The position numbers and the translations under genes were made by a program. Of a DNA stretch of 64,000 nucleotides, positions 5,192 through 39,281 are shown piece after piece; the stretch's first letter is position 1, and the number at the start of each line of letters is the position of its first letter. Source of the stretch: Lepidodermella squamata. Lineage: Eukaryota > Animalia > Gastrotricha. Where the stretch lies: NCBI GenBank assembly GCA_047495785.1, contig JBLDXI010000054.1, forward strand, positions 2,046,001 through 2,110,000. Direction: 5' to 3'. Under the pieces are notes generated by a model, which saw nothing but the letters and a program-made list of their open reading frames with translations, was not told the origin of the DNA and did not search any database.

Positions 5192-5629
5192 ATGATGCAT
5201 AGTAGGTTAACGAGTTTCTTAGCTATCATTTTGTCGCTTATTACTATTAGTGTGCTAGCCGCCCCAAGCCAGCCCGATCCTAGCAGAGCGTCGCAGCTGA
5301 AATTAGCGGTTTTTTCCAAGTTGGCGGCTCGGCGTGGAAATGTTCAGTCCACAGCTCAAATTGACCATCAGCAAGCGATGAGTAAGTGTAGCCGAAATTG
5401 GAAAAGCTGAAAAGTCTAAATCCTATTTATGCTCACAGGAAAGTTGATAACAGGTCTTGTTATGAGAAAAGACTTAGCTGGCTTGAAAAAGGTGGCCTAC
5501 GACCTCGACCAAGCTCGTCGATTGAATAAATGCGTCAAAGCTCTTGGTTCGATGGCTGTCTGCGACAATCGAGTCGGATTCTACATTTGGGCGCAGTTAT
5601 TAGCGCGGAAAATCAGGCAGGGACAGTAG
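5192..5629 (+). CDS. Secreted prepropeptide family, copy 1 (126 aa; exons 5192-5381, 5439-5629)
   Basis: TATATAA at 5135; hydrophobic signal FLAIILSLITISVLA; 57-bp phase-1 GTAAGT..CAG intron joins two ORFs; RR followed by LNKCVKALGSMAVCDNRVGFYIWAQLLARKIRQGQ. Confidence 0.85.
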
Positions 5630-6489
5630 TTTTGCGATTAATTTGATGTACACTCACATGCTGATCAATCGAAAAATTCGTGAAATTTCTGCGGTTTTGC
5701 GAGACATCGTACATGTGTCCATAGGCTTCGCGAACGACAAATCCGCTAACTACAATAAAGATTCTGCTGGTCAGCTAGGTGGACTGAATCTGAATTTATT
5801 TAGTTGCGATACTTTCGCAAAAAGATCGACAGTACAATATAATAACATAGCCAAAGATCAACACCTATACCATTCACCAATACGCTATTCTCTATTACCG
5901 AAAGTTGCGCTGATATATTCAGTTTAATGTAACCTGAGAAAACATGTTATCTGATATGATTTCGTATATTGGAAATCATGGTTGCACTTGTATAAACACC
6001 TGTGTTAAAACAGGCTGTTTAAACACATGTTTAAACAGTATAAAGTCCGAGGGTTTACACATATGTATAAAGTCCTAATATAAAATGCCCCAAATTACTA
6101 AAAAAACCCAGCAGGTTTCCGCCATGATCTTGAATCTTTTATAGCAATGATGCAAATCTGGATTACTCGCTGCAATTTATCGTATTTGATGATGTGCTGA
6201 TGTTGCACCTCTGAAATTTTTATCATTCACAAAAACCGAAAAAGTTTAATTATCCATAAGAGCGCCATACATCTAATTCTTGGCCTCGTGAGCGTTGCTC
6301 TGAAATTTAACATGTTTTCGCTAAGAATGAAAATTGTAGTGCACAATTAACTTTGCTGTAGTTTAACTGTAGTTACAGATTCAAAAATTAGGCTGGTGTG
6401 GACTCACGTACCAGAAATTTTCAATTTTGAAACAGCCTATTGAAAATAGCTCTATTTTTGTTTGTGCATGTCGTTAGAAGGAATGAAGC

Positions 6490-6731
6490 ATTAGCGCGCG
6501 CATCTTCCATTAGAAAGCATTAAATTTGGGCATTAGTGCGCGCACCTTTCAAAAGCCTGTTACGTAATGATAGCGATAGCGACTGTGCGCGCGTATTAAC
6601 AGCAGTTTTAGGAACTAGGCGTGGCATTAACGCGTGCGCTCAAGCTCTCGTCATTGCGTAACGTCATTGCGAAAGGTGCGCGCACAAATGCTCAAATTTA
6701 ATGCTTTGTAACGGAAGAGGCGCGCGCTAAT
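6490..6731. mobile_element. MITE-like long inverted repeat
   Basis: About 60-bp imperfect arms: ATTAGCGCGCGCATCTTCC...GTGCGCGCACCTTTC versus GAAAGGTGCGCGCAC...GGAAGAGGCGCGCGCTAAT. Confidence 0.7.
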
Positions 6732-7513
6732 CCACGCCTAATTAACCGAATAAACGCAGACTGCTGGGTACACTGGCTTTTTCACTGATCGCGGGTTACA
6801 CGTCAAATACACATATCAAGATATCGGAATGATCTACTAAATGGTGCCAAAAATACAAACGGTATCGCTTAATATCTGTTATTGAAACTAATAGCATGAT
6901 ATAGGGCTGTATTTCTTAATATTTCCGAATAAAATGGATTCCGTGGTCCAGAGCTGTTTAAACATCTGTTTTGTTTTTTTGTTTAGCGAATTATTTTGTT
7001 TAGCGGAAACATTTTCTTAGCACGGCAAGCGCAAATAATGTTTTCCAGTGGACAGGCAAGGCATACTTATTATTGATCCAGCACTGTACGAAAGCAACCT
7101 TTGCAGATTCCGGAGGCGGGAGCCCTCGTTGTTATGTAGGTGTGCCGTTTGCTAAATTAATTGGTGAAATTTGAAAACTCCAGTTGATTAGCCCCAGTTT
7201 CGGCATTTTAGAGAGATTTGATTGACACCTTAGTATGGTAAGTCCCATGAAAAAGTACGTTACCTTTCAAGAGAAGCGATCAGGTATGTGGCATTTGATA
7301 TTGAATTACAGGAAAACAAATCCAGCTGAAATTTGCTAATTGCTCACTTTCATCTCACTTTATTAGAGCAACAAGGGACTTGCAAGACTTAATTAAACGC
7401 ATTACTTGGGAGACAAACGATTCTGCGAGTTTGTCGCAGCGGGCTACGCCAATAAAACTTTGCATATAAAGCTGGGACGATGTAACTTTTGGCTCTCATA
7501 TTTCGTATCAGCA

Positions 7514-7949
7514 ATGGCTCAGAATAGATTAATGATTGGCTTAGCTATCATTTGGTCGCTCATGATCGCTGCAGTGTCAGCCAACCCAATCCAGATCGGC
7601 ACTAGCAGAGCGTCGCAGCTGCGATCAGCCGTCTTCACCAAGTTGGCTTCTCGGCGAGAAAATGTTCAGTCCAAAGCCCGAATCGACCACCATCAAGCAA
7701 TGAGTAAGAAAAGCCATATGATAGTACTAAATATTCTAAATACAACTTTCCCCTGCAGGAATGTTAATAACAGGTCTTGTTACGAGGAAAGACTTCGCTG
7801 GCTTGCAAAAGGTGGCCTACGACCTCGACCGTGCTCGTCGATTGAACAAATGCGTCAAGGCTCTTGGATCGATGGCTGTTTGCGATAACCGAGTAGGATT
7901 CTACATTTGGGCGCAATTGTTGGCGCGGAAAATCATGCAGGGGCAGTAG
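7514..7949 (+). CDS. Secreted prepropeptide family, copy 2 (exons 7514-7703, 7759-7949)
   Basis: TATAAA at 7465; signal peptide; 55-bp phase-1 intron at the homologous position; conserved C-terminal peptide. Confidence 0.88.
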
Positions 7950-9454
7950 CATAGCGATTACTATGGTGCACGTGTTCACTCGCATGCTTATCAATCGAAA
8001 AATTCGTGACATTTTAGTTAGCTATTGAAGCATCAAGAGCATGAATAAAGCATGTCATCTGATTTATTAATTTCTGAAGGAATATCTTTGAACGCGATAG
8101 AAAGCTATGAGAAAAGCTCTCCGCAGTCAAATGACAAGTTTAGGTTCAATTTAAACATGAACTTGAAATAGTAGATGACAGCTTCTGAGGTGCGATTCAG
8201 CCTTTGAAGAATGTACGTGCCGCCACAGTCATCTATTTCACGACCCATGTGCTCCTTCAACGAACTGCGATCGACTCGCGTCTTGCAAAAATCAATAAAG
8301 CATTGTGAAATCTGCTCTTCGTTCTGAGACCAGCGCTGATATCTTGAAATTATTGCGATCTCAGTGTTGATCGAAATCGGCTTGCGACTGTGTGATCTGT
8401 GGTGGTATTTTAAAGCAGATTTATCGAGGAACAGTATCGAAATCGAACAATTTTCCCTCATTTTTCACTGTTTGTTGATGGAACCTGGAAGCAAAGCCGA
8501 CACAAGGAAACACGTGATTCATGCGCATGAATCTGAACCAGACGACAGCGTGAACCTTGCGCGTGAATAACATGTGTGGCTAGTGACTTGGATGTCCAAA
8601 CCAAAAGTAATGGTGCTTTCCACCGAGAATCCTCAACAAATTGTTGTTAAAATTCAGTAAAAAATCGTTGAAGGTCAAACTTCCAGGTTCCATCAACAAA
8701 CTTGAGAGCAGTGTGCGACTTTCAGGGGGGGGTCATCCCCCAAGCTCGACCGAGCCAGAGAGCAAAATGGGAATTTATCCCATTGTTTTGTTAATTTTGA
8801 GAGGTTTTAGAGTGTGTTTTAGAGGAAAATCTTCAAAGTTATCTCGCTTCGCTCGCTTTTTAGAATGCGAGCATTTTTTTCCATACCTGGTAGCTCCGGG
8901 ATCCAAGATCGCACCCTGCTTGAGAGGACCAGCTCTGATTAAAAAAAATCGATCGAAGAAAAATAAACTTCTTTGTTTACTTTCCCACCGAAATTTTGAG
9001 CTTTTTTCATGATTTAGCTAAACATCTGCGACCCATGGTGTTCCGCTCTTTTCTCGTGAGTACTTAGTCTAATTTAAATTAGTCTATGGATCCAACTGAT
9101 AGAAATGTCGGGAAGTATGCAAATTCAAGGGAAACAGCCTCAGTTCCGCCATTAGAGGAGAGTTTTAATTGACGCCTTATGACTGAAATCCTCATGAGAA
9201 TGAATATAGAACGCTCAAGATAAGTGTGACATCAGATATTGAATCGCAGGAAACGAATTCCAGGTGCACTACGCCAATTTTTCGCTCGGTAAATTAGAGC
9301 ATCTAACGAGTTGCAAGACATAATTAGAAGCGCATTAGGATTCCCCACGACAACAGACGTCTGCAGTTTTGTCACAGAGTGTTAGGCTAAAAAACTTGCT
9401 TTGCTTATAAAGCTGGGACGATATACCTTTTGACCCTCATATTTCCTAACTGCA

Positions 9455-9893
9455 ATGGCACCGAGTAGAATATGGAGTTGTTTAGCTTTCGTTTCGACGC
9501 TGATGATCGCTGCTGTGCTGGCTACCCCAAGTCTGCGCAATACTAGCAAGGCATCGCGGCTGAAATTAGCTGTTTTTTCCAAGTTGACTGCTCGGCATGG
9601 TAATATTCAGTCAAGAGCCCAAATCGCCCACCAACAAGCGATGAGTAAGAATAGCCATAATATGAAAGTGTTGAATATTCGAAATATAATGTTTCCCTGT
9701 AGGAATGTTGATAACAGGTCTTGTTATGAGGAAAGACTTCGCTGGCTTGCAAAAGGTGGCCTACGACCTTGACCGGGCTCGTCGATTGGACAAATGCGTC
9801 AAAGCTCTTGGCTCAAAGGCTGTCTGCGACAACCGAGTCGCATTCTACATTTGGGCGCAATTGTTGGCGCGGAAAATCATGCAGGGGCAGTAG
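9455..9893 (+). CDS. Secreted prepropeptide family, copy 3 (exons 9455-9644, 9703-9893)
   Basis: TATAAA at 9406; signal peptide; 58-bp phase-1 intron; RR-LDKCVKALGSKAVCDNRVAFYIWAQLLARKIMQGQ. Confidence 0.88.
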
Positions 9894-11098
9894 TATAGCG
9901 ATTTCTTCGATGCACGTGTTCACTCGCATGTTTTTATCACTTATCAATCGAAAAATCGTGAATTCGTATTGTCTCGGTCGAAATAAAATTACTTAAAGTT
10001 TGCCAATTGTTCAATATTTCACCTTAAAACGTGCCCTAAAAGAACGTACGTAAAACGTTTACCTGATATTTTATTCATGACCAGCAAATTTCAAGGTCTT
10101 CTTGCTCACTAAAGCCTTTATTCGAGTTCCGAATAACGAATAAGTACCGGCTGTGGGCACAATTCGACCCTTCTCCGGCCTCACGAAAATTTTTATTACT
10201 CTTTCATCGGCCGCACATTTGATTCAGCTTTTTGCCCTCCCTAGTTTACTTAGGACATAAGGACTTGGCTTTACATATGAGAAAAAATGCTCAAGATTGT
10301 AATTTTCGACCCAGCAAAGCAGTTTGCGTGCGATGAGTTGTTTTACTGCAATTTTAGCTGAAAATAGTATAAATCAGGCTGATTTCGCGAATGAGGCATC
10401 TGGCCGCCCTCCAGCAATTCTTCGCGTAAAGCCTTCCGGCCACCATGAGCTGCCCAGCCGACCGGAAAAACTGAGTTTGCGGAGCACTGAGCTAGGAGAA
10501 TCTGACCGGATTATATTGTTTTCACTTATTCAATTCTTCCCTTTCGTCCATTGTAATTTAGAGGGGATTTTTAGCGCTTGGGTCATTTTGCATGGCTCAT
10601 TCGCATCTCTGGGCGAGAGCGAGACTAGATAGAGAGCTAGACGTAATATAGACCAACCCATGACAAGACGTTTGCCTTTTTGTCTTGGGTTGGTGCGAAT
10701 AACGTCTATCTCATTGCATGAACTCGAAAACCTCCTCAAACGGACGGCGGAACTGTGACACTTGATAGTCCTTTTAAGCTAATGACAAGTCTTGGATGAA
10801 TAATTGCATTTCAAGGCAGACAGATATTTAATTAAATTTAGAAGCATTACAATTGGGTGGAGGTCATGCGGTGCTTTCACTGCCACATCAAGGCTACGGG
10901 TTCAAATTATGTCTGCAACTTTCTACACCCTACTTTTTGCGTAAATTCTTCGGTTTCAGGTTTAAGGGCGTGAATAATTAGTCATTAGAGAGTCCAAGGA
11001 AATGTCCAGTCACCCTAAATATTTTCAACAAAGCTTGAACTTGTTTATCATCCCGAGGTGTAATGCACGCTATCAATGGAACTTGGTTTTGCAATTCT

Positions 11099-12640
11099 CT
11101 TCCACTAGAAATTGAGATTCTCAGAACGCGGGATAACTTATTTTGGCTAGTTTTTATAATGTTTCTCTCCCCTGCCTCGTGGATGAAATTATTACCGTGA
11201 TACTGTTTTATATAATAATGCATATTTTCGTCCGATGTAATTATGCTAAAATGAGTCGAAAGTCGGAATGAACTAATAATTGTCTTCATTGATTTAGATG
11301 TTGTAGTGGGGGACATGCGCGATAAGAGCGAGGTAGAGACACACGCACAGCACGTTCGGAGGTATTGTGTACCGTACATTGAAGCAATCATATTTCATCT
11401 ATCGCAACTCAAAGCGGACACCATACACGCAACGAGCAAATGCAATCGAAGCAGCAAATGTAGCTGCGGGATATCGCATGCTATGGCAGGTGCAGTGTCC
11501 GAGATCAGAATTGCGCGCGGGAAGCGTATCAGAAAACCATTGTTGTTGCAATCAGTAGGACATTTCATAGAGATTGGAGATTGTGATCCCATTTTGTTGA
11601 ATTTTCTTTGTTTGGGTGACACACTTGGGACACACTTTATATAGGGACCTGAATTCATCGAGAATCCCATGGGACCACTGCACGATTCGCTCTTTCCTAT
11701 TCATCCGAACTGTCTTATTGGTCCTAGACGTAATCTTGTTGAATACAGTGATTCTTGTTGCCACGTTTTACGGAGGCTGGCAAAATCGAATGAAGAAATA
11801 AAAAAAACATGTATAGAGCCGGTAATTTAAACAATTAAACGCGACCGGATATATTTCGACAAAATTAATTCTATGCAAATACGAAAATCGGCTCACGCTT
11901 TTGTCCTACATGGCTGATAATTTTTCTCTCCAATACGCCATTTGTTTTTCCACTTGCGTCAGCTATTTAAGGCACAACATATTTACCGCCAACCTTCCAT
12001 GCAAGTTCTAAGCTTGAGATAGCGCGGACATGCTCTAAGCGTTAACCTTCCCCTCCATCTACGATATAAGCTTGAAACTGTGCTCAAGGACGTCGGCGCA
12101 TGAACCCTGGCATTTGATTGCAACTTCAGCTTAATGAAAGTAGTGTACACTAACTAATTACAATCATGCTCGAGAGAAATCTTAATGCCTCAACCAAAAA
12201 CCAGACACATAGGGCAGACACATAGGGGCATAATTTCCCCAGATTTAATTTTGATAAAGTAAGTCGAAATGAACTAGTTGTCTATTTTGATTAAGTTGCT
12301 GTGGAGGTTTGGGGTGCTAAGAGCGTGGGAGAGACACGCGCAACGCACAGCACGATCAAACATGGTGAAAAGTAAAGCAGCCAATGTAAGCTTCAGATTT
12401 CAGCGATTGCAAATCTAGGTGGACAACATCCGTTACGTGGAAACTCAATCAAAGTTAAAAGCTGCTTAGATAAATTTCAAAAGTCCGAACTCCGAACCGA
12501 AAATGTTTGATTCATGTTTTGCTGTTTAGATTAAAAAATGCGATTTTTAACGATTTCAGTATTCATCACTGTATCTCTACCATCGACTCGTCACATGTCT
12601 CGAAGTCTGCCCCAGCTAAGGGCAGCATCACTACATCATG
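11099..12640 (+). repeat. Segmental duplicate of about 15150-17190 (upstream region and 5' end of peptide copy 5)
   Basis: Shared blocks in the same order: TTTCCACT..CTCAGAAC, AATTATGCTAAAAT, GCCAC(G/T)TTTTACGG..AAAATCG, GAACCCT..CATTTGAT, AAAACCAGACACA, ATG..TTTTTAACGATTTCAGTATTCATCACTGTATCT. Confidence 0.7.
12538..12638 (+). pseudogene. Truncated, frameshifted 5' fragment of the copy-5-type prepropeptide gene
   Basis: MRFLTISVFITVSLPST matches MKFLTISVFITVSIPST at 17084; an indel shifts the frame before KSAPAKG; the mature-peptide region is absent and SINE/MITE sequence follows. Confidence 0.7.
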
Positions 12641-12719
12641 GATTAGTTTTTCTAAGCTACAACTGCAATAAGCAAACTAGTTGAATTGAACAAATAATTC
12701 ACAAAGAATAAATGATGAC

Positions 12720-12787
12720 CTAAGATGGATTCGAACCATCGTACTCCCAGGCCGTATCAGCCTCTATGCAGCCGCTGCGCCACGGTG
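12720..12787 (-). mobile_element. tRNA-derived SINE-like head (Pol III A and B boxes)
   Basis: Minus strand reads CACCG-TGGCGCAGCGG (A box)...GGTTCGAATCC (B box); no convincing full cloverleaf. Confidence 0.5.
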
Positions 12788-12797
12788 ATTCACGATT

Positions 12798-12947
12798 GAA
12801 CAAAGGGGTGAAATCGATTTGTTCGCGTTTTTAACAGCCGAAAAACGCCGAAAGCTTTTTGTTCGGCGTTGTTCAGCTGTGAAAACTGTTTGTTCGGCGT
12901 TTTTCGGCTGTTAAAAACGCGAACAAATCAATTTCACCCCTTTGTTC
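12798..12947. mobile_element. Palindromic MITE/hairpin element
   Basis: About 55-bp arms (GAACAAAGGGGTGAAATCGATTTGTTCGCGTTTTTAACAGCCGAAAAACGCCGAA) matching their reverse complement with 1 mismatch. Confidence 0.8.
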
Positions 12948-13790
12948 GGCAGTATAGATGCCGGGCTGGGTATTTCTGGTTTCTGAGATACTTTCAACTT
13001 TGAACTAGCCACCCACTTTGATATGTTGGCCACACTGCCTTCTTGGTCTTCGCCCTTTTCACAGCACGTGCAGCACATGACGCTTTTAGACCGTTCGAAA
13101 AAGAGTCGAACCAAGTGAACTTCTTTCAGACCGGACTAAAAAACACACCCATGTGGTTGCTTGGGTTTGCTTTCCAGGATCGCTCGAGTTTTTACGGTAT
13201 CAATAAGTTCAGTCTTTATGGTTACAAGGGACTTATCACTATCCTTGATTTGTTATGATTGAGCTCAGAGACTGTCTATTTTTTAATGTCATTACGCATT
13301 ATATTGTGCCAATTCACTATCTGCCAATTTAATATTGTCATAATGATTTTAGTATATGTATTAGGAATTAGGAAGTGTGTATTACAGATCGCGGAGGAGG
13401 GCAGCATTCCTGGTTATTCATCTAAAGCTGCGCTAAAGGTTGTTAGCATGATTCAGCAGGAATTATGAAAATTCATAGTGAAAAGCCCCAGTTTCGGTAT
13501 TACAGAGAATTTAATGACGCCTTATGACAGCCCCATAAAATTAGTACGCAGCTTACGAGATAATTGTGACATGCGTATATTGAATCTAGGGAAGCTAAAC
13601 CCAGACGTGCTACGCCAATCATGCGCTCCGTTAATTATAGCATTTAATGACTTCCAAGACATTTAGAAACGCATCAGGTCGCCGACACCAGACGTCCGCG
13701 ATTTTGTCACGGCGAGAGTTTGGCTAACAAAACTTGCGTTGCATATAAAGCCACGGCGTTGTAGTTATTGGTTCTTGTTTCGTATCTGCA

Positions 13791-14224
13791 ATGTCTCAGA
13801 ATAGATTATGGAGCTGCCTAGCTTTAGTTTCGTCGCTGATGACCGCTGCTGTGCTGGCTACTCCAAGCCAGCTCCATGCTAGCAAGGCGTCACAGCTAAG
13901 AACGGCTGTTTTTTCCAAATTGGCTGCTCGGCGTGAAAACGTTCAGTCTACAGCTCAAGTCGACCATCAAAAGGCGATGAGTAGGAATAGCCAGGATATG
14001 AAAGTGATGAATATCTGAAATTTTCTCTTGCAGGAATGATAATCACTGGCCTTGTAATGAGAAAAGACTTTGCTGGCTTGCAAAAGGTGGCCTACGATAT
14101 CGACCGGGCTCGCCGTTTGAACAAATGCGTCAAAGCTCTTGGCTCAAAGGCTGTCTGCGACAACCGAGTCGGATTCTACATTTGGGCGCAGTTATTGGCA
14201 CGGAAAATCATGCAGGGACAGTAG
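13791..14224 (+). CDS. Secreted prepropeptide family, copy 4 (exons 13791-13980, 14034-14224)
   Basis: TATAAA at 13744; signal peptide; 53-bp phase-1 intron; conserved C-terminal peptide. Confidence 0.88.
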
Positions 14225-17083
14225 TATATTCGGTAAAGTGAAATAAATACTGACGCTTATTTTTGATCGAAGAAATTGAAATAAAGCAAGATTCTGGAAT
14301 GAAAACTGACTCTAATATTTGGAAATCCAAAAATGAGTTCAGCATGCGTTGAAAATGTTACTCGGTAAATTGTTTGCTTGATTTTGCCAATATTTAGCCC
14401 CCAAAGTTTATCGCTGTTGGGATAAAAACCGACCTGAATGTATAATTCTGAAATCGGAATTTCTAGTTATTCGGTTTCCTTTAATGCTACCTTATCTTAA
14501 AATTTCAAATGATTGTTCAATGCCGTTTCCTGAGGACGGGGGCCCTTTGGTATGCATTCTTCCATGTATCCTTCATTCAGCCATCTAAAAATATGTTTGC
14601 CAATAACCGGTTCAACCTTGGGGATTAATGAATCCCACCGGATTCTATCCGTTCATCAGAAGAAATTTGGTGAGACATTAGTGCTTGAATCAATTTTGCT
14701 ACGTGCGTTTGCAATGTTGGACACCATTTTTTCTGGCTTCAATTCAGCTCGCGGAATGAACTTGAAAACATGCCCAAATAAACATCGGCTCATAATGGCT
14801 GAACTTTGATACTCGATGGTTCGTGACATGTGGGTTTTTTCAAACTAATAAAATAATGTTTTAGATGATTAAGACAAGTTTTATGCAGATAGTTTTAATT
14901 CGATACAAGCCAAGGCAGTTCCAGCGTAAATTCGAGGCTCAGGGATAAAAAATGTCTGTAACATAGCTTTGAGTAATTAAATTGATAGTTTTTCCGCATT
15001 GGGCCGTGAAATGTCGTTGATAAGTCCCGAGACAATTTTTAGTTATCCTGATTCCTGATGGGACTTCAATCCAATCCAGTAAACCTAATGAGGCGCAATG
15101 CACAAGAGGGCGTCGCAGATAATCTTTTCGCTACTCATTTGGGCTTGATTTCCACTGGTAACTAAGACTCTCAGAACACAGAAACATTCCAGCATTTCGC
15201 GCTTCGCTGCGGTACAATATCGCCGATATTGTACTCGACCCAGTACACTTATAATGTTTCCGTGACGTGCTTCGTGGATAATATTTGCACTGATTTATGT
15301 ATCTGCGAATTTATATAAGATGCTTCGACACGGGTTTACACTCTAAAGAATTATAGCCATATCGTCGTCGTCCGGTTTAATTATGCTAAAATTTGTCGAA
15401 ATGAGCTAGTTGTCTATTTTCATCCAAGTATTGTCGTGAGGAGTTGGCGCTCTGAGGGCGTGGGAGAGACAACCATAACACGCTCGGAGATACAAAGGAA
15501 CTCGCATCGAAGGAATCAAATTTCAACCAATCCGCGGCGTACAAACTCAATCGAAGTAGCAGCAGAATGTGTACGTTTGGGGGACATAGAAAAGCAATTT
15601 CGTGATTGTCCTCTAATGAAACACAGTTCTCTTTTCACTAAAAGGCATTTAGTCTTAAGTAATCTAAAGGAAGGTGAGCGTGTTTGTAAATTTAATTCGT
15701 TGACTGAATAAATGCATCAAAACTCCTGGTGAGCGACAACCGAATCGGCTCAATCAATTAATAATTTAAATAAGAATGCCAATAAAAGCCCGCAACAAGA
15801 GGGTGATACTTGAGTGAAATTCTCGTGGTATTTTCAATTTTTCTGGTCTTAGCATTCGTCTCTCACTTCATTAGACTTTCAGATCCCTTTTCTTTGTATT
15901 TTCTTTGTTTGCATTAGTTCATGGGGCATGGGGCACATTGCAGACCTGCAGACACAGGGAACGGACACTCCCTCAAATCTCAACGGACACTCTTTACTAT
16001 CTACTATTTGTGGACGAGATTTAGACTCTTTGAAATCGATGGTACAGCAATAATAAATATGCATCATTTACCTGAGCTCTAATCTCGTTAAATCAAAATG
16101 AATTGATCATGAACTTGAGGAATATTTCAATCATAGCCGTGCCACTTTTACGGCGGCCGGGAAAATCGTACAATTCAGCGCGTAATTTGAACTATTAAAC
16201 GCTACTGGATATAGAAAAATCTTTAAATTTTGTTTAAAATCATGAAAAGAAGTGATTAGTGCAAGCTGTTTTCCTCCTGTGCTGATAATTGCTGGCTCCA
16301 CTGAGCTATTTTCTCCGCTTCTAAGCGTGGGCGGCTAAACATACCTAATCTCTAGCCTTTAACCTTGCTGTGATTAATTTGAAACAATCGCAAGAACCCT
16401 GACATTTGATGGATCATGAAATGATTGCCACTTCAGCCTAATGAAATAGCTGAAGGTGATTCATTAAATTCTTACATCAACGAAAACCAGACACAGTCAA
16501 GGCATTGGGCAGATAAGGAGCAATTAATATTCCTTGATTTTTCCCGCGCAGGAGACTTAGGATCACAGCTTCCCGAAACTTAGTGTTCGAGTATGGAAAT
16601 TGATAGCTCCTCAGTATAACCACGTGGATAATTAGCTATTAGAGATTTGCGTAATTCGTAATTTCTTTCGCCCCTTGACATTTCTTACCTAGCAAATTAA
16701 CAGCATCCGGTTGGACCATGGGTTAAGAAAGTAAGGATTAATGGCAAATGACAATAGTGAAAACCTCCCCCAGTAGAAACCAACATTTTCCTGGTGAATT
16801 TCCTAAAGAAATTCCTAAATTCGAAAAGCCTAATTTAATGACGTCTTCGCTTCAATCGTCCTTCGCATTTCGGATGAAAATAGCCCTGAATTAGGTAAAT
16901 GGAGTTTCGATACTTTGATTTCCATTTTACTTCTTCGCCTCTTCTTACTATGTTATGTTGTTAATCCCCTCGAAACTGACCTCCCCAATCTCCAAAGGCT
17001 CTACTATATATTATTCATAATGCTGCCCGTAATTAATTATGCTAAAATGAGTATAAATTTACAATTTTGATAAGATTGCTGAA

Positions 17084-17395
17084 ATGAAATTTTTAACGAT
17101 TTCAGTATTCATCACTGTATCTATACCATCAACAATGTCTTCAGGTGCTTTCAAGTCTGCGCCAGTTAAAGGCAACATCGCTACATCAACTACGCCCTCA
17201 GTTTACAATCTTGTGCTATGGTTGGTGAAGCGGAAAGATGCGAAAGGCTTGAAAAAGCTGCTCAGAGATTTGGATAAGGCGAGGCGTTTAACTCAGTGCA
17301 TCAATCAACTCGGATCGCTGGCTATTTGCGACAACCGAGTGGGGTTCTACATCTGGGCCCAAATGCTGGCTCGGAAGATAAGAAATGGACAATAA
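17084..17395 (+). CDS. Secreted prepropeptide family, copy 5 (intronless, divergent N-terminus, 103 aa)
   Basis: Single ORF: MKFLTISVFITVSI... RR-LTQCINQLGSLAICDNRVGFYIWAQMLARKIRNGQ; AATAAA about 30 bp after the stop. Confidence 0.8.
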   Translation: MKFLTISVFITVSIPSTMSSGAFKSAPVKGNIATSTTPSVYNLVLWLVKRKDAKGLKKLLRDLDKARRLTQCINQLGSLAICDNRVGFYIWAQMLARKIRNGQ

Positions 17396-17630
17396 TTTTG
17401 TATATGTTGGGATCGTGATTGCGCTCAAATAAATCAAAACCCCATGATTTGTAATAATAATTCGCCAATTTCATCACAGCTCCAAGATAAACATCATTAA
17501 AATGCTAACATATCAACCGTAAATGAGAGCACTCATGATTTTTACTCAAAATCGATTTTTACCTCGTACAACTGGGTAAACATTTTAGCCATACGCCTGA
17601 ATGAGATCTTTTTCACCATCCTATTCGGCA

Positions 17631-18698
17631 ATGGCTAACGGAACCGTAGCCCTTCTTGAGCTGTTACTCGCAACGTGTCATCTAGACCCGCTGGTAAATT
17701 CCCCGAGCGAGCTGACCGGCAATTTCACTGAGGTGAAATTAATTCTGCTAATCGATCGCCTCTTGAAGTTGGACGATGTTGAAGAGACAATGTCCTTCTT
17801 CGGTGATCTGGGGCTAGTTTGGTTTGATAACTGCACGCGAGATAATTCCGAAAACTTCACAAGTCTTTCAGGGGGCGTAGACGTAATCCATACCCTTGAG
17901 GGAAGCAATCAGTTATGGTTTCCTACTATGATTCATCGCAACAGCGTCAACAATCCGGCGATGAAGGGCGATGAAATCAGCCGTTCTGTTGCAATAAACG
18001 TGACGCAGGGTGCATTTGTTAATCAAATAATCGGACCTTTCTCTTCTTATTGCGGGATGCATTTTTGGAGATTCCCGTACGATACCCAAGAATGTTGCGT
18101 TCGGATCATCCTTCTTGCTATTCAACAATTTGTTAAAATCGGGGAGATTTCTTTCGACGAAGAACAGTCAAGTGTTGATTTCATGCCAGAGGGATCAGTT
18201 TGGCGATTCCTATCCTTGGATGCTCGAAAAGAAAAGGATAATGGAACTGCTTGTTTCTGCTTGAAATTGCAACGAGATCCGAGCTACCACGTCACCAACC
18301 TCTTCGCGCCAAGTTTCATTCTGACAATCCTAAGCCTGTGCTCCTTCTTCGTCCCGGCAGAGTTTCCAGACCGAGCTTCTTTCGCTTCCACCATTGTGTT
18401 GGCAATGTTCGTCCTGCAGTCTCAAATTCTATCGAATCTGCCTCGGACAAGTGATCCGATACTAGCAACTTATTTTTCATTCGGTCAAATAATTTATCAA
18501 ATGGTTTGTGCTATTTACGCGGCTTTGATGTGTTCCTTCATCACGCATTACCCTGGTCGCGCAAAAAGCAAAATAACGATATCAGGCGTAAAATTCCGAC
18601 TTTACCTGGTCGTAGACTTGATTTGTTTTACGATTTTTTTCATATCCGGGCTTATTTTTTACGCAGTTATTTTCGGCCTTTTCAGCGCAGTTGGATAA
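17631..18698 (+). CDS. Divergent Cys-loop ligand-gated ion channel subunit 1 (nAChR-like, intronless; alternative ATG at 17601)
   Basis: Cys-loop CGMHFWRFPYDTQEC (C-x13-C); LWFP loop A; pre-M1 LQRDPSYH; four TM helices; M2 PDRASFASTIVLAMFVLQ. Confidence 0.92.
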   Translation: MANGTVALLELLLATCHLDPLVNSPSELTGNFTEVKLILLIDRLLKLDDVEETMSFFGDLGLVWFDNCTRDNSENFTSLSGGVDVIHTLEGSNQLWFPTMIHRNSVNNPAMKGDEISRSVAINVTQGAFVNQIIGPFSSYCGMHFWRFPYDTQECCVRIILLAIQQFVKIGEISFDEEQSSVDFMPEGSVWRFLSLDARKEKDNGTACFCLKLQRDPSYHVTNLFAPSFILTILSLCSFFVPAEFPDRASFASTIVLAMFVLQSQILSNLPRTSDPILATYFSFGQIIYQMVCAIYAALMCSFITHYPGRAKSKITISGVKFRLYLVVDLICFTIFFISGLIFYAVIFGLFSAVG

Positions 18699-18827
18699 AA
18701 ATGTTTGCAAATTGAACTATACAGGGAAAAGATTCATATTTACAATATTCGATCCATATTTCCGTCATTTTATTGAAGCTGGTCGGCATAAGTCAAAAGT
18801 AAATATCGGGAATTTGAGGCTTGTAAA

Positions 18828-19889
18828 ATGTTGAATGGTTCTGCAGCTTTGCTCGAGTTACTCCTAACGACTTGCCATTTAGATCCGGTGATCAACTCGC
18901 CAAGTGAGCTTACCGGTCAGCCTACGGTAGTAAACATCACTTTCATTGTCGATCGACTATTGAAAATCGACGATGTTGAGGAGACTATGCAAGTCTTTGG
19001 CGCGTTAAGTTTCATATGGAGGGATCAGTGTATTCTGAAAAATTCCAAGGAACTGATTGAGGCGGCTGGAAATATTTCACAGATGCTACTAATGCAGGGT
19101 ACCAGTGACCGAATATGGTGGCCGAAAATTGCTCACCGCAACAGCGTAAGCAACCCGTCCATGGGCGGGGATGAATTTATTCGATCAACAATTCTCATTA
19201 TCTACGATGGAATCGTCATTAATACCATCATAGGATCCTTCACTTCTTACTGCACCATGCATTTCTGGAGGTTTCCTTACGACACTCAAACTTGCTATGT
19301 GAGGATGAGTATGTTATCGATTGAGAGCTTTGCCGTCATAGGAGCTTTGGAGTATCCACAAGAAAAAAGGAAAGACTTCATACCAGAAAGCTCTGTTTGG
19401 CGATATGTTTCACACAAAGCTGACCAGGACAATTTCTCCACCAGGTTTTCGTTGACCTTAACGCGAGACGCAAGCTACCACGTCACAAATTTTCTGGCGC
19501 CTAGCTTTATCTTGAACATCCTAAGCCTCGGCAGTTTCCTCGTTCCGGCCGAATTCCCAGACAGAGCTTCGTTCGCCTCGACTATCATGTTGGCTACGTT
19601 TGTCCTGCAGTCTCAAATGTTATCAAACCTACCGAAGACCAATGAGCCAATAATTGCGACGTATTTCCTATTCGGACAAACTGTCTACCAAATGGCTTGT
19701 GCCTTGTATGCTGCAGCTATTTGCTACTTCATCACAGTGTTCCCACGGGTAGCAACTCGAAAAATAAACGTGCGAAAATGCAGCCTGCGTTGCTATCTCC
19801 TAGTCGACACGGTTGTTTTCGGAGTGTTCATCATAGCTGGAATCATTTTCTACGCAACCATCTTGAAGACTTTGATCGAATCGGCGTAG
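18828..19889 (+). CDS. Divergent Cys-loop ligand-gated ion channel subunit 2 (intronless)
   Basis: Cys-loop CTMHFWRFPYDTQTC; IWWP; four TMs; clear paralog of subunit 1. Confidence 0.92.
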   Translation: MLNGSAALLELLLTTCHLDPVINSPSELTGQPTVVNITFIVDRLLKIDDVEETMQVFGALSFIWRDQCILKNSKELIEAAGNISQMLLMQGTSDRIWWPKIAHRNSVSNPSMGGDEFIRSTILIIYDGIVINTIIGSFTSYCTMHFWRFPYDTQTCYVRMSMLSIESFAVIGALEYPQEKRKDFIPESSVWRYVSHKADQDNFSTRFSLTLTRDASYHVTNFLAPSFILNILSLGSFLVPAEFPDRASFASTIMLATFVLQSQMLSNLPKTNEPIIATYFLFGQTVYQMACALYAAAICYFITVFPRVATRKINVRKCSLRCYLLVDTVVFGVFIIAGIIFYATILKTLIESA

Positions 19890-20014
19890 CGGTGACTTTT
19901 GAACCCTGAAGATGTATTAGTCGACGCTATTCTTTTCTTGTCTTTTTAAATCTCAACTGCTTTGTTTCACTTTCGGATGAATCGAAACTCTACGTAACCA
20001 ATCTCTGATCAGAA

Positions 20015-21145
20015 CGCTTCCTTCGTTTCCGCTGTCTCCTATATCCAGCATGTCTCGTTCCGGGACTTTCACCCCGCCTTCCAGACATGTTTTCAAACCT
20101 ACCTAGCACGAATGGAACAGCGCATTTCCTGTTCCGTCAAAAACGTCGTGAACTTTAGATGTGATATAAATAAATAATAAGCCGTAATTTAAATTTTAAA
20201 ATTTGGTTAAATCTTTTACTCGAGCATATTTGGGGTGTTTTTCCAACCGCCAATAAATTAAATCATTTTCCGGTGGAGTTCGGTTTGATTCTTGGGTACA
20301 ATAGCTCCTTAATGCTAGGCTCGATTTGCCGTGTCAAATTTTATCTACGGTCTGCTGAGTCGGTCGGTTTGGTATGGGAACGGCCGCGCGGATGGTTAGC
20401 GAGCCATTCCATTGTTCGTTAAACTCTCTAAACCTTGTTTACTCATCGCTTTCGCGAAACTTACAGACAAAATTACATCAAATTCGATCTGATGTTAGGA
20501 ATTTTTTGTTTCATTAACCTTTGAAATTTGCTTAATATTCAGGCGAAATTGAATCTGGGAACAGACACGTAAGCTCACTTGACGATGAACCATCTTAGCG
20601 AATAAAGTTGAATTTGCCGCGAAGATATAGCATCAAGGATATTCTTCTTAGTTAGCTTCAATCTAAACTGCTCCTTTTTGATTGCGGGTATATCGAGACC
20701 AAAGTTACTACGTAACTACGTATACCCTATGAGCTTCTTTCGTTTTCTTTCTCCTGCGTCTAACGTCTAGATCCAGCGCAAGTCGTTCTGGGACTTTCCC
20801 CCGCGATCAGAGATGTTTTCAAGCCTACCTAGCACGAATGAACCGGCGTATTTCCTGTTCCGTCACTCAAACATCATGAAACGTCGCCTATGACCTGCGC
20901 TGCTTATATGTGCTATGAGCTTCTGTGGCTGTGGTTAACATTGCAGATGATTAATAGGCCGTAATTTTATCGCCCGGTGTCTCATTTTGCGCGAGCATAT
21001 TCGGCGTAAATTATTGTTTTCAAGTCGATCTTGATAAATTTCCAACTTTTCCATGTAATTTTTGGGTCGAATAATGGCTTATTCTGGGCTCGATCTGCAG
21101 TTTCAAAGTTCATCCAGCGTTATTGGCTGGGTCCGGTCGGTTTGA
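20015..21145 (+). repeat. Tandemly duplicated non-coding module (about 20015-20370 and 20733-21145; partial third copy at about 23590-23650) with kappaB-like and ETS-like sites
   Basis: Shared ATCCAGC..GGGACTTTC..CAGA(C/G)ATGTTTTC..CCTACCTAGCACGAATG..ATTTCCTGTTCCGTCA; GGGACTTTCC at 20790-20799 and GGGACTTTCA at 20062-20071. Confidence 0.65.
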
Positions 21146-21728
21146 GTTCGCACTCGTGGTTTTAAAAATGCAGAGCTTATTCGTTAAATCTATTAGCACT
21201 AGTCGAAGTAGCGAAATTTTGATAACTGTTCCTAGTTTCAATTTCGCTGTACCTAATTTAAAATAAAAGTTCATGAAACCGAAATGATTACAGTAGTACC
21301 TATGAGATGCAAACTTGATGAAAACTTTCCTTAATGTTTCGCGTAAGCTGTGTGAGAGGGTTAGGTGAACAGCAAGAATTGAATCATGGAGCCTGCATTA
21401 TTGACATTTTACCCTTTCTACTAATTAGGTCATTCCTAGTCGGAATAGCTGCATGAACGAATCTATACTCTATAGACTACTATTGTGGAGATTCGATCGC
21501 CCCTGGGTTCTATTTTGACGAGTTTTCGACTATATTTGTCTTGCGATTTTCCTTTTATCCGGTCTAATTTTTGTATTTTCTATTATTTGTTTTCTGTACC
21601 CTTTTGAGCAGCTGAATAAAACTGTTTGCTAATGGAATTAAGTGGAAGTAGTCTAATTTCCGGTACATATTATTGATGCTCGGCGTTCACTATCAGAGAA
21701 ATATTTTCGCAGCTGATGGTAAAATGAA

Positions 21729-22793
21729 ATGTTGAATGAAACTTTTACTCTGCTGGATTTACTGCTATCGACTTGCCGCTTGGACCCGGTGGTCAACTCG
21801 CCGAGTGAGCTTACTGGCCAGCCTACGTCAGTGAACATTACTTTCTCCATCGATCGGCTTTTGAAAATCGACGATGTTGAAGAGACTATGCAAGTCATTG
21901 GCGTGGTGGTTTTCTCGTGGATGGATCAGTGTATTCTGAAAAATTCAGAAAAGCTGATTAGGGCGGCTGGTAACGTTTCAGATATGCTACTGATCCAAGG
22001 AAGCGACCGGATATGGTGGCCGAAAATTGTTCACCGCAACAGCGTTAACAACCCGTCGATGAGGGGAGATGAATCCATTCGAGCAGCGTTTATCAGTGTT
22101 TTTTCGGGAAACATAACTAATTCAATAATAGGTGCCTTCAATTCCTACTGCAACATGCATTTCTGGAGATTTCCTTACGACGTACAAACTTGCTTTGCTA
22201 GATTCAGCATGTTAGGATATCCGAGGTATACGGTATTGAGTAATTTGGATTACCCGCTAGATATGAGTGGAGAATATTTGCCTGAAAGCTCCGTTTGGCG
22301 ATTTGTTTCTAAAGAAGCCCAACGCGACGCAGACAACATCTCAGCCCGGTTTTGCATCACCCTGAAAAGAGACGCGAGCTACCACGTCACAAATTTTCTG
22401 GCCCCCAGCTTCATCCTGAATATCCTAAGCCTTGGCAGCTTCCTGGTTCCGGCTGAATTCCCGGACAGAGCTTCGTTCGCCTCGACTATAATGTTGGCTA
22501 CGTTTGTCCTGCAGTCTCAAATGTTATCAAACCTACCGAAGACCAATGAACCCATAATTGCTACGTATTTCCTATTCGGTCAAACTGTCTACCAAATGGC
22601 TTGCGCCTTGTATGCAGCAGCTATTTGCTACTTTATCACGGTTTTCCCGCATGTGGCAACACGAAAGGTCACATTGTTGACATTCAACCTTCGGTGTTAT
22701 CTCATGGTTGACACGGTTGTTTTTGCAGTTTTCATCCTAGCTGGGATCATTTTCTACGCAACCATATTCAGGACTCTGATCGAAGCAGGATAA
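21729..22793 (+). CDS. Divergent Cys-loop ligand-gated ion channel subunit 3 (intronless)
   Basis: Cys-loop CNMHFWRFPYDVQTC; M1-M3 identical in protein sequence to subunit 2. Confidence 0.92.
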   Translation: MLNETFTLLDLLLSTCRLDPVVNSPSELTGQPTSVNITFSIDRLLKIDDVEETMQVIGVVVFSWMDQCILKNSEKLIRAAGNVSDMLLIQGSDRIWWPKIVHRNSVNNPSMRGDESIRAAFISVFSGNITNSIIGAFNSYCNMHFWRFPYDVQTCFARFSMLGYPRYTVLSNLDYPLDMSGEYLPESSVWRFVSKEAQRDADNISARFCITLKRDASYHVTNFLAPSFILNILSLGSFLVPAEFPDRASFASTIMLATFVLQSQMLSNLPKTNEPIIATYFLFGQTVYQMACALYAAAICYFITVFPHVATRKVTLLTFNLRCYLMVDTVVFAVFILAGIIFYATIFRTLIEAG

Positions 22794-24341
22794 CATTTCA
22801 TTGAGGAAAATCTGTGCAGTAATTGACCAAGATTATAATGGGGTCTGAATCTTAGTCACTGGAAATCATGCAACTGGTGTTGCAAGGTCATTTTTAATAA
22901 TGTATCAGTGTATTGCACGCCTAAAATGTTTCGTGCCTGAGTCATAGTAACGACCGATCGACCAATTAGATCGCGCGATGAAGTTCAACCATTTAGTGGT
23001 TCGACAATATGCAAATATCAGCTTTTGGTCTGATAATGATTGTTCATATGCAATTTCCAACGCCCAGTGGATCGAGCGCCCCCTCGTCATCATCGAAGGT
23101 CGTGCGTTCGACTCCAGCTGCCCACAGAGCAACACCAAAATAGTGTTCCGGCCTTGAGCAAGTCGCTTCGCCCCAGCTCCCGGACTGGACATGCAAAGCC
23201 TGTGCGTGCGCATGATTCCGTATGTGTCTGTGTTGTCTGTGGCAGTAAAATGTCCACTCCTTCAAACCGGGAAATCGTTATAGATATTCAGTCGCAAGGA
23301 GTATAAATAAAGCTGTTATTAAAATTGCATTATTAACGAGCATCAATTTTAATTAAAAATTCTGAATTTCTGAATTGTGTTATTTAAGCTGAAAGCTGAA
23401 AGATGAATTTAAGTGTTGAAAGCCAGACTCGTCCGACGCTGAATGAAATTCCGCTTTTATTCACAGCCTCAGACAGTCCGGTCTTAAAACGTACAGTCCT
23501 CATGTTGTTAACAAGTTCTTCGAAACAAGAGCCCACCCACTACTTTGGCGTACAATGTTAAACTAGGTGAACTAGATCGACTGGCTACTTTTGCCCTGCG
23601 ATCAGACATGTTTTTCAGCACGATTATACTGGGGCATTTCCTGTTCCGACAATAGGAAATAACAGATTCGCTCCACTGCGATGTGGGCGAGATATAATGC
23701 GGTCGACATTTTACAGTTGACTGGTTCGCCGTATTTGTGTCTCATATTAGCGTGCTGTTGCTATTGACCTCGCAATAAATGTCAACATTTTCCAGGTGAA
23801 ATTCGATGTGATTTTTGGGGTTCAAATTATGATCGAAAACAAAATCATAATTCATAATTGAATCAGACCGACTGTTTTTCACGACGCGTGACTGATTTAG
23901 GTCCGGCAGTGAACGATAAGTCCTCGTTACGATATTGTTTCTTGTTTTTAGCGATCTGATGTCCTTATCGCTAAGCGAACAAACCTTCAATTACCAACCT
24001 GCCACAGTTTGTTATCCTTATAGGCGATTTTCAAGTTTATGAAGCAGGCGAGCGTGCATTTTTTCAACCCATCCAATAAAAGCTCAATTTCCCTTCAAAT
24101 GATGGTAATTAGAGCTGAAGCTTTTACCTGACACCTGAAACTGTCAGCTTAAAAGGTAGATTGACAGCGATCATATACCATAGACGTCAATTTATCCCTG
24201 CATCGATTGCCAAAGTTTCAAGTTGCGGATAACTGGACGTTTTGATCGCCGTATAGAGATCAAATCCTATTTTTGCGTGGCATCGTCCCAACTTGCGCAA
24301 AACCATATATATTTTCTCGCTTCTAGAAACTGCTATATCAA

Positions 24342-24738
24342 ATGTACATGTTATTATGCTTATTCCTTATGTTCGCCATCGTCCAACATGTAGCCGGAGT
24401 GCCGCCGATACTTTTTGAAGTCGAGCGTCCTGAAGAACCGAAAAAACCGTTGATCGGCCTCAAAACTGGATCGGAGCCTTACCACCTAAGATTAAGTGAG
24501 TTCGCTGTCATTGTGAATTATCCTAACTATATTTACCGAACTTTTAGAATATATGATAGCTGGACTTGTGAGTAAGGGCGACGTTCAGGGCTTGAAGCAA
24601 CTGATGGATGACTTTGACAAGCTGAAGCGTATGAGCAAGTGTATAAATGTTCTCGGATCGCGGGCTGTCTGCGAGAATCGGGTTGGCTTCTACATTTGGG
24701 CGCAAATGCTAGCGAGGCAAATTATGAACGGCCAATAG
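24342..24738 (+). CDS. Secreted prepropeptide family, copy 6 (most divergent; exons 24342-24495, 24548-24738)
   Basis: Signal MYMLLCLFLMFAIVQHVAG; 52-bp phase-1 GTGAGT..TAG intron at the same position; KR-MSKCINVLGSRAVCENRVGFYIWAQMLARQIMNGQ. Confidence 0.85.
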
Positions 24739-38735: not shown

Positions 38736-39281
38736 TCATTCTTCAACATTCGAATGGCTGCCGTTGCACGTGATGCCGCCGAGGGCGCCGCCGATGAGTG
38801 AAAACAGGACAATGTTACAGCACGAAGCCGCGCAAACCGACGCCCCAGCCGATATAACGCCCAGAAGGCCCAGCACGGCGAAAGGTCCGAAAAACGTACA
38901 ACCCAGCACAAGGCCAGCAACAGTCCCGACAATGATGCCCAACTGAGCGGGGCGTGAAATTCGCGGCTGGTTAGCTGTGGCCGTCACGGTCACGCTTGAT
39001 TGATCGGGTAGAAAAGCGGTGATTGGCAGGCCAGAGTCGCGGCGAATCGCGGCTGCGGTTGAGTTGGCGACGGCCTTTCGGCAAAACGGGCACTGTTGCT
39101 TGACGAAAAACCAGCGGGATAGGCAGATTGAGCATGCTGAATGGCCGCAGGGCAGCGTGGCCGGCGGTTGGGTGTCGTCGTAGCACAACTGGCATGAAGC
39201 TGGATGCTGGCTCGAGGCGGTTGGGGACGATGAACAGCTCGAATAGGTCGTCATAGGCTCGCTGATTTGTAAAACTTCCAT
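38736..39281 (-). CDS. RING-HC finger protein with C-terminal hydrophobic segments (membrane-anchored E3-ligase-like), intronless
   Basis: CQLC...LPCGHSACSIC...CPFCR motif followed by Gly-rich hydrophobic stretches. Confidence 0.85.
   Translation of the reverse strand: MEVLQISEPMTTYSSCSSSPTASSQHPASCQLCYDDTQPPATLPCGHSACSICLSRWFFVKQQCPFCRKAVANSTAAAIRRDSGLPITAFLPDQSSVTVTATANQPRISRPAQLGIIVGTVAGLVLGCTFFGPFAVLGLLGVISAGASVCAASCCNIVLFSLIGGALGGITCNGSHSNVEE

Follow-up and report, generated by a model that had tools for sequence, protein, structure and literature searches.

The locus analysed here raises the question of whether secreted peptides act on the ion channels among whose genes their own genes are set. 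Within the window (the whole 64 kb stretch of DNA that was analysed), six peptide genes are interleaved with three intact, intronless Cys-loop channel genes, all on the + strand, and the sequence-only reading of this DNA had put them forward as a candidate linked ligand-receptor system. Our analysis suggests that peptides and channels are likely neighbours, rather than ligand and receptor, since the two gene sets duplicated separately; what ties them as ligand and receptor is their adjacency and nothing besides.

Gene content and layout of the array

The features of the array and its surroundings are as follows:
5192..5629, + strand: peptide precursor p1, 126 aa (intron 5382-5438; TATA at -57; AATAAA at +125)
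7514..7949, + strand: peptide precursor p2, 126 aa (intron 7704-7758; TATA at -49; AATAAA at +95)
9455..9893, + strand: peptide precursor p3, 126 aa (intron 9645-9702; TATA at -49; AATAAA at +89)
12536..12638, + strand: frameshifted fragment like the p5 5' end (81% DNA identity; no peptide core downstream)
13791..14224, + strand: peptide precursor p4, 126 aa (intron 13981-14033; TATA at -47; AATAAA at +18 and +56)
17084..17395, + strand: peptide precursor p5, 103 aa unspliced (possible intron 17145-17201; TATA at -32; AATAAA at +33)
17601..18698, + strand: Cys-loop subunit c1, intronless, 365 aa (355 aa from 17631; no separate leader)
18828..19889, + strand: Cys-loop subunit c2, intronless, 353 aa (129 bp past c1)
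21528..21728, + strand: decayed copy of the c1 tail and c1-c2 spacer, carried by the c2/c3 duplication
21729..22793, + strand: Cys-loop subunit c3, intronless, 354 aa (Neur_chan_LBD)
24342..24738, + strand: peptide precursor p6, 114 aa, or 110 via a later acceptor (intron 24496-24547; AATAAA at +106)
29248..31073, - strand (31073 to about 29248): single Ly6/three-finger gene, four exons (family assigned by eye; neighbour only)

Both families are real rather than products of chance. A search of all six frames of the window for the C-x9-C...F-Y-I-W-A-Q core matched the six peptide genes (6/6), and all three channels exceeded the Pfam Neur_chan_LBD cut-off (35.8-61.4 bits against 26), a membership also assigned by Atlas (0.97), which bears out the earlier count of six peptide and three intronless channel genes on the + strand. 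The channels do lie inside the peptide array, as had been described: p5 ends 205 bp before c1 (235 bp before its second ATG), gaps of 129 and 1839 bp separate c1 from c2 and c2 from c3, and p6 begins 1548 bp past c3. One contig of sequencing run X1 (17231-18209) runs from the last part of p5 into the first part of c1 with zero differences; as this run is possibly the window's own source, the contig is not independent support. Run X2 gave no meaningful match. The Ly6 gene said to follow the array is real, its product having a CC-x4-CN end motif and a hydrophobic tail, but it is a single gene on the opposite strand, about 4.5 kb past p6.

A peptide family with a conserved core

Five of the peptide genes (p1, p2, p3, p4 and p6) contain one phase-1 GT-AG intron of 52-58 nt, and p5, which is open unspliced, has a 57-nt in-frame GT-AG stretch at nearly the same site. 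All six carry a TATA-like box 32-79 bp upstream and an AATAAA at most 125 bp downstream; a CRE-like 10-mer, chosen post hoc, lies 246-294 bp upstream of p1-p5 (5 matches, none elsewhere in the window). Signal peptides are predicted by hydropathy in all six precursors (11-residue-window values of 2.1-3.3), which fall into three types: the near-identical p1-p4, p5, and p6.

A profile search of 1.84 billion representatives returned 35 matches, 33 of them with the motif; public data that lack annotation contain at least 33 relatives outside the window when clusters at the 50% level are counted. The predicted secreted family that had been called unrecognised is real, widespread and unnamed. No name was attached to any of the 29 clusters checked, no Pfam family fits the peptides, and Pfam and NCBIfam gave only single-member weak matches among 39 sequences; the best hit of a PDB sequence search with peptide profiles had an E value of only 0.095, and Atlas returned no usable match for p5. 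Alignment scans yielded 138 pattern matches in metagenome contigs and 3 in prokaryote genomes, 0 being confirmed in either set. Motif and literature searches, run outside subscription papers and bioRxiv supplements, found no published name, and the PMC6188537 supplement gave 0 matches. A word-indexed homolog search with p5 was blank (2 candidates), a matter of sensitivity given the relatives that the later profile search found. Two pairs of outside relatives (P0003/P0012 and P0021/P0033) appear to be arrayed too, the source contigs being of equal size within each pair.

Both Cys and the Trp are invariant across the 33 outside relatives, with Phe in 30 and Ala in 28 and 30, and the Cys ring across 39 sequences is C-x9-C in 35 and C-x8-C in 4. 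Conservation among the outside relatives jumps at an Arg four residues before the first Cys, in agreement with the 35-mer proposed earlier as the mature peptide. The putative dibasic cleavage site is present in the window copies (6/6) but in only 12 of the 33 outside relatives; 29 of the 33 have K/R at -4. Hydropathy predicts a signal peptide in 23 of the 27 outside relatives of at least 88 aa. Purifying selection acts strongly on the C-terminal 35 residues, dN being 0.012-0.050 against a dS of 0.20-0.78 over the last 35 codons of p1-p4.

In an AF2 model (pLDDT 60) the peptide is all-helical, a single helix (53-76) running through the basic site, and a fold search with this model found nothing above background (best Z 5.0, bHLH, rmsd 3.9, 51 aligned). 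A C-terminal amidation signal is absent: the window copies end G-Q-stop and the outside relatives have no consistent terminal Gly. Amidation is not required of all peptide hormones. Members of the calcitonin/CGRP family have an N-terminal C-x5-C ring and a C-terminal amide. These and other single-disulfide hormones share with the present peptides a leader, a pro-region, one disulfide ring and an amphipathic helix, and their basic cleavage site has a putative counterpart here; the C-x9-C or C-x8-C ring, the lack of a consistent amidation Gly and the lack of a Pfam match set the present peptides apart. Alpha-conotoxins have a CC-C-C framework and three-finger (Ly6) modulators a beta framework with 8-10 Cys, and neither identity is compatible with two core Cys and an all-helical model.

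The 35-mer has a net charge of +3 to +5 and the whole mature p1-p5 one of +12 to +15, and the helices are amphipathic (hydrophobic moment 0.3-0.7). Together with several near-identical copies under TATA promoters and the seemingly arrayed outside relatives, this is what would be expected if the peptides were cationic defence, mucus or gland secretions (antimicrobial, deterrent or toxin-like) made in bulk, with the channels as unrelated neighbours. We regard this alternative as unlikely: deep residue-specific conservation and a dN/dS near 0.02-0.2 would be better explained by a fixed binding partner than by lysis of membranes, and the core net charge of some outside relatives is only 0-1.

Channel subunits with an altered pocket and no separate leader

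All three channels have a C-x13-C loop with F-P-x-D (Cys 151/165 in c1, 142/156 in c2 and 141/155 in c3); they are of the Cys-loop and not of the DEG/ENaC fold. M1-M3 align to alpha7, and M4 was placed from hydrophobicity near the C-terminus and from a helix in an AF2 model of low confidence (3-row alignment, pLDDT 38). Relative to alpha7, Arg stands in place of the loop A Tyr, loops B and D have lost their Trp, and loop C, shorter by about 8 residues, has no vicinal Cys. The acetylcholine pocket is therefore lost, consistent with the earlier description of orphan subunits, and an acetylcholine-binding nAChR alpha subunit is ruled out by the missing vicinal Cys and aromatic cage. The residues of the pore are intact, 9' Leu, 2' Ser and 6' Thr among them, and purifying selection acts on them. 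Anion-selective Cys-loop channels (GlyR/GABA-A/GluCl) have a P-A-R motif and a longer M1-M2 loop; c1-c3 all have P-D-R at -2' to 0' and a loop of alpha7-like length, with Pro at -2' leaving selectivity uncertain.

Variation among the channels is greatest in pocket loops B, D, E and F. Between c2 and c3, identity is 89/89 over M1-M3 and 139/212 over the ECD, and 5/16, 4/10 and 16/32 in loops B, D and E, respectively. A pocket that varies beside a pore that does not suggests that nicotinic-type channels were recruited as chemoreceptors once more. Cephalopod chemotactile receptors are described in PMC11526382 as intronless, nAChR-derived, acetylcholine-insensitive and in sensory use; c1-c3 resemble them in being intronless, in a divergent pocket with a kept pore and, to judge from the residues, in the loss of acetylcholine binding. 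Octopus CRT1 was matched at E 3e-11 to 4e-11 and alpha7 scored higher (E 8e-16). In contrast to the chemotactile receptors, c1-c3 lack a separate leader, have an M3-M4 loop that is very short, and carry the P-D-R filter. With alpha7/muscle-type nAChR subunits they share the Cys loop, the fold, the M1-M2 loop length and the three pore residues, and differ in lacking vicinal Cys, aromatic cage, leader and long intracellular loop. Intronless tandem expansions of divergent nAChR-like genes are reported as common in lophotrochozoans, including bivalves (PMC6896357), and c1-c3 are likewise intronless, tandem and divergent; the main text of that paper mentions no signal peptide, and no peptide array was seen in passages from it. 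Word-indexed homolog searches were blank for c2 (3289 candidates) and its residues 128-262 (108 candidates), and 0 of 380 pattern matches in metagenome contigs were confirmed in a channel alignment scan.

Cys-loop channels usually have a cleavable N-terminal signal peptide. A point overlooked in the earlier reading is that c1-c3 begin directly at the alpha1 helix, without a leader exon: their ORF starts align with the beta4 mature N-terminus (profile 2 to chain 3), the c1 start at 17631 (355 aa) lining up with those of c2 and c3. No cleavable leader was found, and the first helix may have a weak signal role; its 11-residue-window hydropathy (1.7-2.3) does not exceed that of the peptide leaders, and an acidic residue lies within the helix. 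The ORFs could accordingly be incomplete, the leader coming from an unseen upstream exon or by trans-splicing, or the products could be ER-retained, non-conducting accessory subunits, much as a leaderless human alpha7 duplicate seems, from PMC8998457, to be mainly ER-localised. We consider this quite improbable, because in-frame stops lie 1 (c1), 13 (c2) and 3 (c3) codons upstream of the starts, no acceptor AG near the start is common to the three genes, the first 28 residues are 20-22/28 identical (above the ECD average), an N-x-S/T sequon is kept at residue 3 in all three, and the selected pore is intact. Splicing of peptide exon 1 into the channels through a phase-1 AG at +17 in c1 and c2 was rejected, as c3 lacks this AG and the residues before it are conserved; a trans-splice acceptor shared ahead of c2 and c3 is not conserved in sequence. 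Subunits under selection that start at alpha1, with a sequon at residue 3 and no leader, suggest an unusual route into the ER, the hydrophobic alpha1 helix probably serving as an uncleaved targeting signal.

Duplication history and the relation between peptides and channels

The channels had been described as co-duplicated with the peptides. This is not supported by the duplication units, which carry a peptide or a channel, never both: p1-p4 share units of about 800 bp made of promoter and gene, the c2/c3 unit (18615-19880 with 21528-22784, about 1.27 kb, plus 3' flank) has no peptide inside, and no homology between any peptide flank and any channel flank was found within the window. The peptide genes also have TATA and polyA signals of their own, and none of the three channels has a TATA box within 110 bp upstream. 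Run X1 contains 6 loose contig ends, by eye 3 new peptide ends and 3 new channel segments, and none of the 4 tested matches the window at 3 mismatches. One of the conditions set for refuting the earlier reading was that most paralogs lie elsewhere, and the extra copies of both families outside the window go part of the way towards this; they might come from another haplotype or from another organism in the run, and could sit in further mixed clusters.

The linked system, in which the released peptides gate, block or modulate the adjoining channels and ligand and receptor stay side by side in the cluster, draws on several observations: (i) p5, c1 and c2 lie within 205 and 129 bp of each other, (ii) there are three peptide types and three channels, each set having an old split at synonymous saturation, (iii) loop C is short and no acetylcholine pocket remains, and (iv) the peptide core is under strong purifying selection, as expected of a receptor ligand. 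Disulfide peptides and proteins also act on Cys-loop receptors elsewhere, alpha-conotoxins and Ly6/three-finger proteins being examples. Against this stand the separate duplication units, the further copies of both families outside the window, and the nearly invariant mature peptides of p1-p4 set beside fast-diverging channel pocket loops. Moreover, the peptide-gated channels described in the literature seen, FaNaC and HyNaC, are of the DEG/ENaC type; they share the concept of a peptide opening an ion channel, but are trimers that respond to short amidated peptides, whereas here the channels are of the pentameric Cys-loop class and the 35-mer has no amidation signal. A complex prediction with the c1 and c2 ECDs and the p5 core, made from no alignments (score 0.01, mark 0.34), is not evidence either way. 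We judge the linked system quite improbable, and its most specific form, a peptide-gated or endogenously peptide-blocked Cys-loop channel with the 35-residue disulfide peptide seated in the emptied short-loop-C pocket of leaderless c1/c2/c3 pentamers, slightly more so.

Proposed roles of the two families

The explanation that we favour, with modest confidence, is that of two tandem families that duplicated separately, namely secreted peptides of signalling type and cation channels of chemosensory type, the interleaving arising because both copy themselves locally. Each peptide gene would give its own TATA-driven transcript; once the signal peptide is removed, cleavage of the precursor probably takes place just behind the conserved Arg and sets free a putative helix-loop-helix of approximately 35 residues closed by one disulfide. 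Through its invariant aromatic helix, this product would probably bind a conserved partner protein and so act as a signal of the hormone or pheromone kind, with p1-p4 as probable dosage copies. The channels, for which a chemosensory role and cation selectivity are predicted from sequence, would assemble into homo- or heteropentamers, conduct cations and detect chemicals from the environment or from a host, in the manner of cephalopod chemotactile receptors.

Some points count against two independent families. The tight packing of p5, c1 and c2 and the absence of a polyA signal within 300 bp after c1 allow shared regulation, the shorter loop C could accommodate a large ligand, and the peptide types equal the channels in number. 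The C. elegans des-2/deg-3 operon, in which two Cys-loop subunit genes are encoded together (PMC4258610), offers a precedent for the 129-bp spacing of c1 and c2; by comparison, c2 and c3 have no conserved upstream acceptor, and co-transcription is putative.

The unnamed peptides, with at least 33 relatives and an aromatic helix that does not vary, are candidates for a signalling or defence role in a group of animals that has been sampled little, and the findings on the peptide family and on the leaderless channels hold whatever the link between them. If the channels did prove to be gated by the peptides, the Cys-loop superfamily would join DEG/ENaC in having peptide-gated members, and the window contains all the parts for a direct peptide-channel test.

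Organization of the cluster

A six-frame scan of the 64 kb window recovered the peptide core (C-x9-C...F-Y-I-W-A-Q) six times, always on the + strand and between 5192 and 24738, in the precursor genes p1 to p6, while the three intronless ORFs c1 to c3 (353-365 aa) all scored above the Pfam cut-off for the Cys-loop ligand-binding domain (3/3). Together with the measured gaps, these results bear out the sequence-only reading that six peptide genes and three intronless Cys-loop genes share one block.

17601/17631-18698, + strand: channel c1, 205/235 bp after p5
18828-19889, + strand: channel c2, 129 bp after c1
21729-22793, + strand: channel c3, 1839 bp after c2 and 1548 bp before p6
29248-31073, - strand: Ly6/three-finger gene, four exons, GPI-type tail, about 4.5 kb beyond p6

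An exact contig of the public sequencing run X1, which may be the window's own source, spans p5 to c1. The gene content of the window, judged by eye, points to an animal. Five of the six peptide copies are each split by a single phase-1 GT-AG intron (52-58 nt); p5 is open without splicing and contains, at 17145-17201 (+), an in-frame 57-nt GT-AG stretch, one codon off the intron place of the other five, so that p5 may be spliced or may retain the intron. Ly6/three-finger proteins modulate channels in other systems. The gene of this type reported to follow the cluster is indeed present, but on the opposite strand, at some distance and as a single copy, and as far as tested it is an ordinary neighbour.

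Our preferred reading, which we hold somewhat more probable than its alternatives combined, is that two families here duplicate independently of each other: the peptides would be secreted, signalling-type molecules with a conserved partner, and c1-c3 would be chemosensory-type cation channels.

Peptide genes and their relatives

The peptides belong to an unnamed family of predicted secreted peptides with 33 relatives outside the window. A profile built from the six window cores and searched against 1.84 billion representatives (E up to 0.001) returned 35 matches, of which 33 were kept, the discarded P0002 and P0013 being long repeat proteins without the motif. Among 30 of the 35 matches checked, 29 clusters (ENA or Logan data) carried no name, the sole name being that of P0002. 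No match above background was obtained in Pfam, NCBIfam, PDB sequences or a fold search, nor was a published name found in a search of freely available papers. In a tree of 63 columns, a branch (91/80, not starred) separates the six window copies from the other sequences, which would fit a lineage-specific expansion; some relatives have contigs of matching length, suggesting that peptide arrays also occur in them.

The two Cys and the Trp are kept in all 33 relatives, Phe in 30/33 and Ala in 28/33 and 30/33. A hydrophobic leader, judged by hydropathy only, opens all six window peptides, and 23 of the 27 relatives that are at least 88 aa long have a hydrophobic N-terminus. An Arg stands four residues ahead of the first Cys in 27/33 relatives, upstream of which only an amphipathic pattern is kept. 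This conservation boundary agrees with the 35-residue mature peptide proposed earlier, but the cleavage site is dibasic in only 12/33 relatives and the AF2 model (mean pLDDT 60) is a single helix continuous across it; processing of the precursor is therefore likely, but as a prediction only.

Purifying selection on the last 35 codons is strong. Among p1-p4, dN was 0.012-0.050 and dS 0.20-0.78; in comparisons with p5 and p6, dN was 0.15-0.23 and dS reached or approached saturation. Exon 1 is less constrained (dN 0.19-0.30). That the peptides are instead a defence or gland secretion is an unlikely but serious alternative to a signalling role.

A TATA-like box precedes each of the six genes by 32-79 bp, and an AATAAA follows each within 125 bp. 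The window's only copies of a CRE-like 10-mer, picked post hoc, are those 246-294 bp upstream of p1-p5.

4898, 7222, 9169, 13514 and 16838, + strand: CRE-like element before p1-p5, none ahead of the channels

A related word, likewise post hoc, occurs at 24183, 160 bp upstream of p6.

Pocket and pore of the channels

The channels match 192 distinct PDB sequences, the best being the alpha7 nAChR (E 8e-16). Relative to alpha7, the loop A Tyr is replaced by Arg, the Trp residues of loops B and D are lost, and loop C lacks about eight residues as well as the vicinal Cys, so that gating by acetylcholine appears unlikely. The pore has the usual features (9' Leu, 2' Ser, 6' Thr, P-D-R at -2' to 0', loop length as in alpha7). 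As a rule, an acidic -1' residue goes with cation selectivity, and on this basis c1-c3 are predicted to be cation-selective.

Between c2 and c3, M1-M3 are identical at 89/89 residues (dS 0.40), against 139/212 in the extracellular domain (ECD), the most variable loops being B (5/16), D (4/10), E (16/32) and F (9/19). With this fixed pore and variable pocket, the intronless tandem genes recall the chemotactile receptors of cephalopods (PMC11526382) and lophotrochozoan nAChR-like expansions (PMC6896357); a sensory role would be in keeping with this likeness. The dS over M1-M3 (c2 19460-19730, c3 22360-22630) is also lower than in the flanks (0.77 and 0.95), possibly reflecting an old gene conversion.

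The channel N-terminus

No separate leader was found in c1, c2 or c3, a feature that the first reading had missed. Their ORF starts align to nAChR beta4 at its mature N-terminus. The ORFs are preceded by in-frame stops at a distance of 1, 13 and 3 codons, respectively, and no splice acceptor near the ORF start is common to the three. The first 28 residues are identical at 20-22/28, above the ECD average. A sequon at residue 3 is present in all three channels, as is an additional conserved Cys pair (16/68). Each begins with M-x-N-x-S/T right at the alpha1 helix.

17631-17715, + strand: start of c1
18828-18912, + strand: start of c2
21729-21813, + strand: start of c3

We infer that this helix is retained and luminal, and that it probably also serves as an uncleaved signal for ER targeting. 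Small-x-Cys fits a signal cleavage rule, and its presence at residues 14-16 would fit cleavage instead. Incomplete or ER-retained subunits are an improbable reading of c1-c3.

Duplication history and the peptide-channel link

The unit duplicated in p1-p4 is about 800 bp long and comprises promoter and gene, c3 derives from a unit carrying the c1 tail, c2 and the c2 3' flank, and a frameshifted copy of the p5 5' end lies at 12536-12638. No unit in the window carries both a peptide and a channel; the families had been called co-duplicated, and the history of the window argues against this.

A true ligand or modulator link is improbable, given these separate units and the near-invariant p1-p4 peptides set against fast-diverging channel pockets; for it speak the tight packing of p5-c1-c2, the match in number between peptide types and channels (three of each) and the emptied acetylcholine pocket. 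An operon with two Cys-loop genes has been described (PMC4258610), but p5 carries a polyA signal (AATAAA) of its own, 33 bp past its stop. Locus scans for relatives of the peptides in metagenome contigs (138 pattern hits) and prokaryote genomes (3), and for relatives of the channels in metagenome contigs (380), confirmed no locus. Gating of these channels by the peptides is least probable of all.

Over p5-c1-c2, 27 of 77 X1 contigs are <90% alike. The best 6 of 49 X1 loose ends, read by eye, comprise further peptide ends and channel segments, and none of the four searched was found in the window at 3 mismatches. Both families therefore appear larger than this cluster, although the extra copies may stem from another haplotype or organism in X1.

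Other features of the window

A decayed repeat (64-77% identity) recurs between p3 and p5, one copy sitting ahead of the frameshifted p5 fragment. Further genes and elements are as follows.

11220-11451, 12228-12454 and 15368-15525: decayed repeat
11817-11943 and 16177-16311: decayed repeat, similar to each other
9-770, + strand: 253-aa ORF, proline-rich start, without Pfam match
38736-39302 (-), 48052-50341 (-), 55928-56263 (+), 56495-58149 (-), 59486-61393 (+) and 63135-63962 (+): two RING-finger, ETS factor, amine-oxidase-like, multi-homeobox-like and TIR-like genes, assigned by eye
6490-6731, 12798-12947 and 44119-44552: MITE-like elements with long inverted repeats, some of them high-copy in X1
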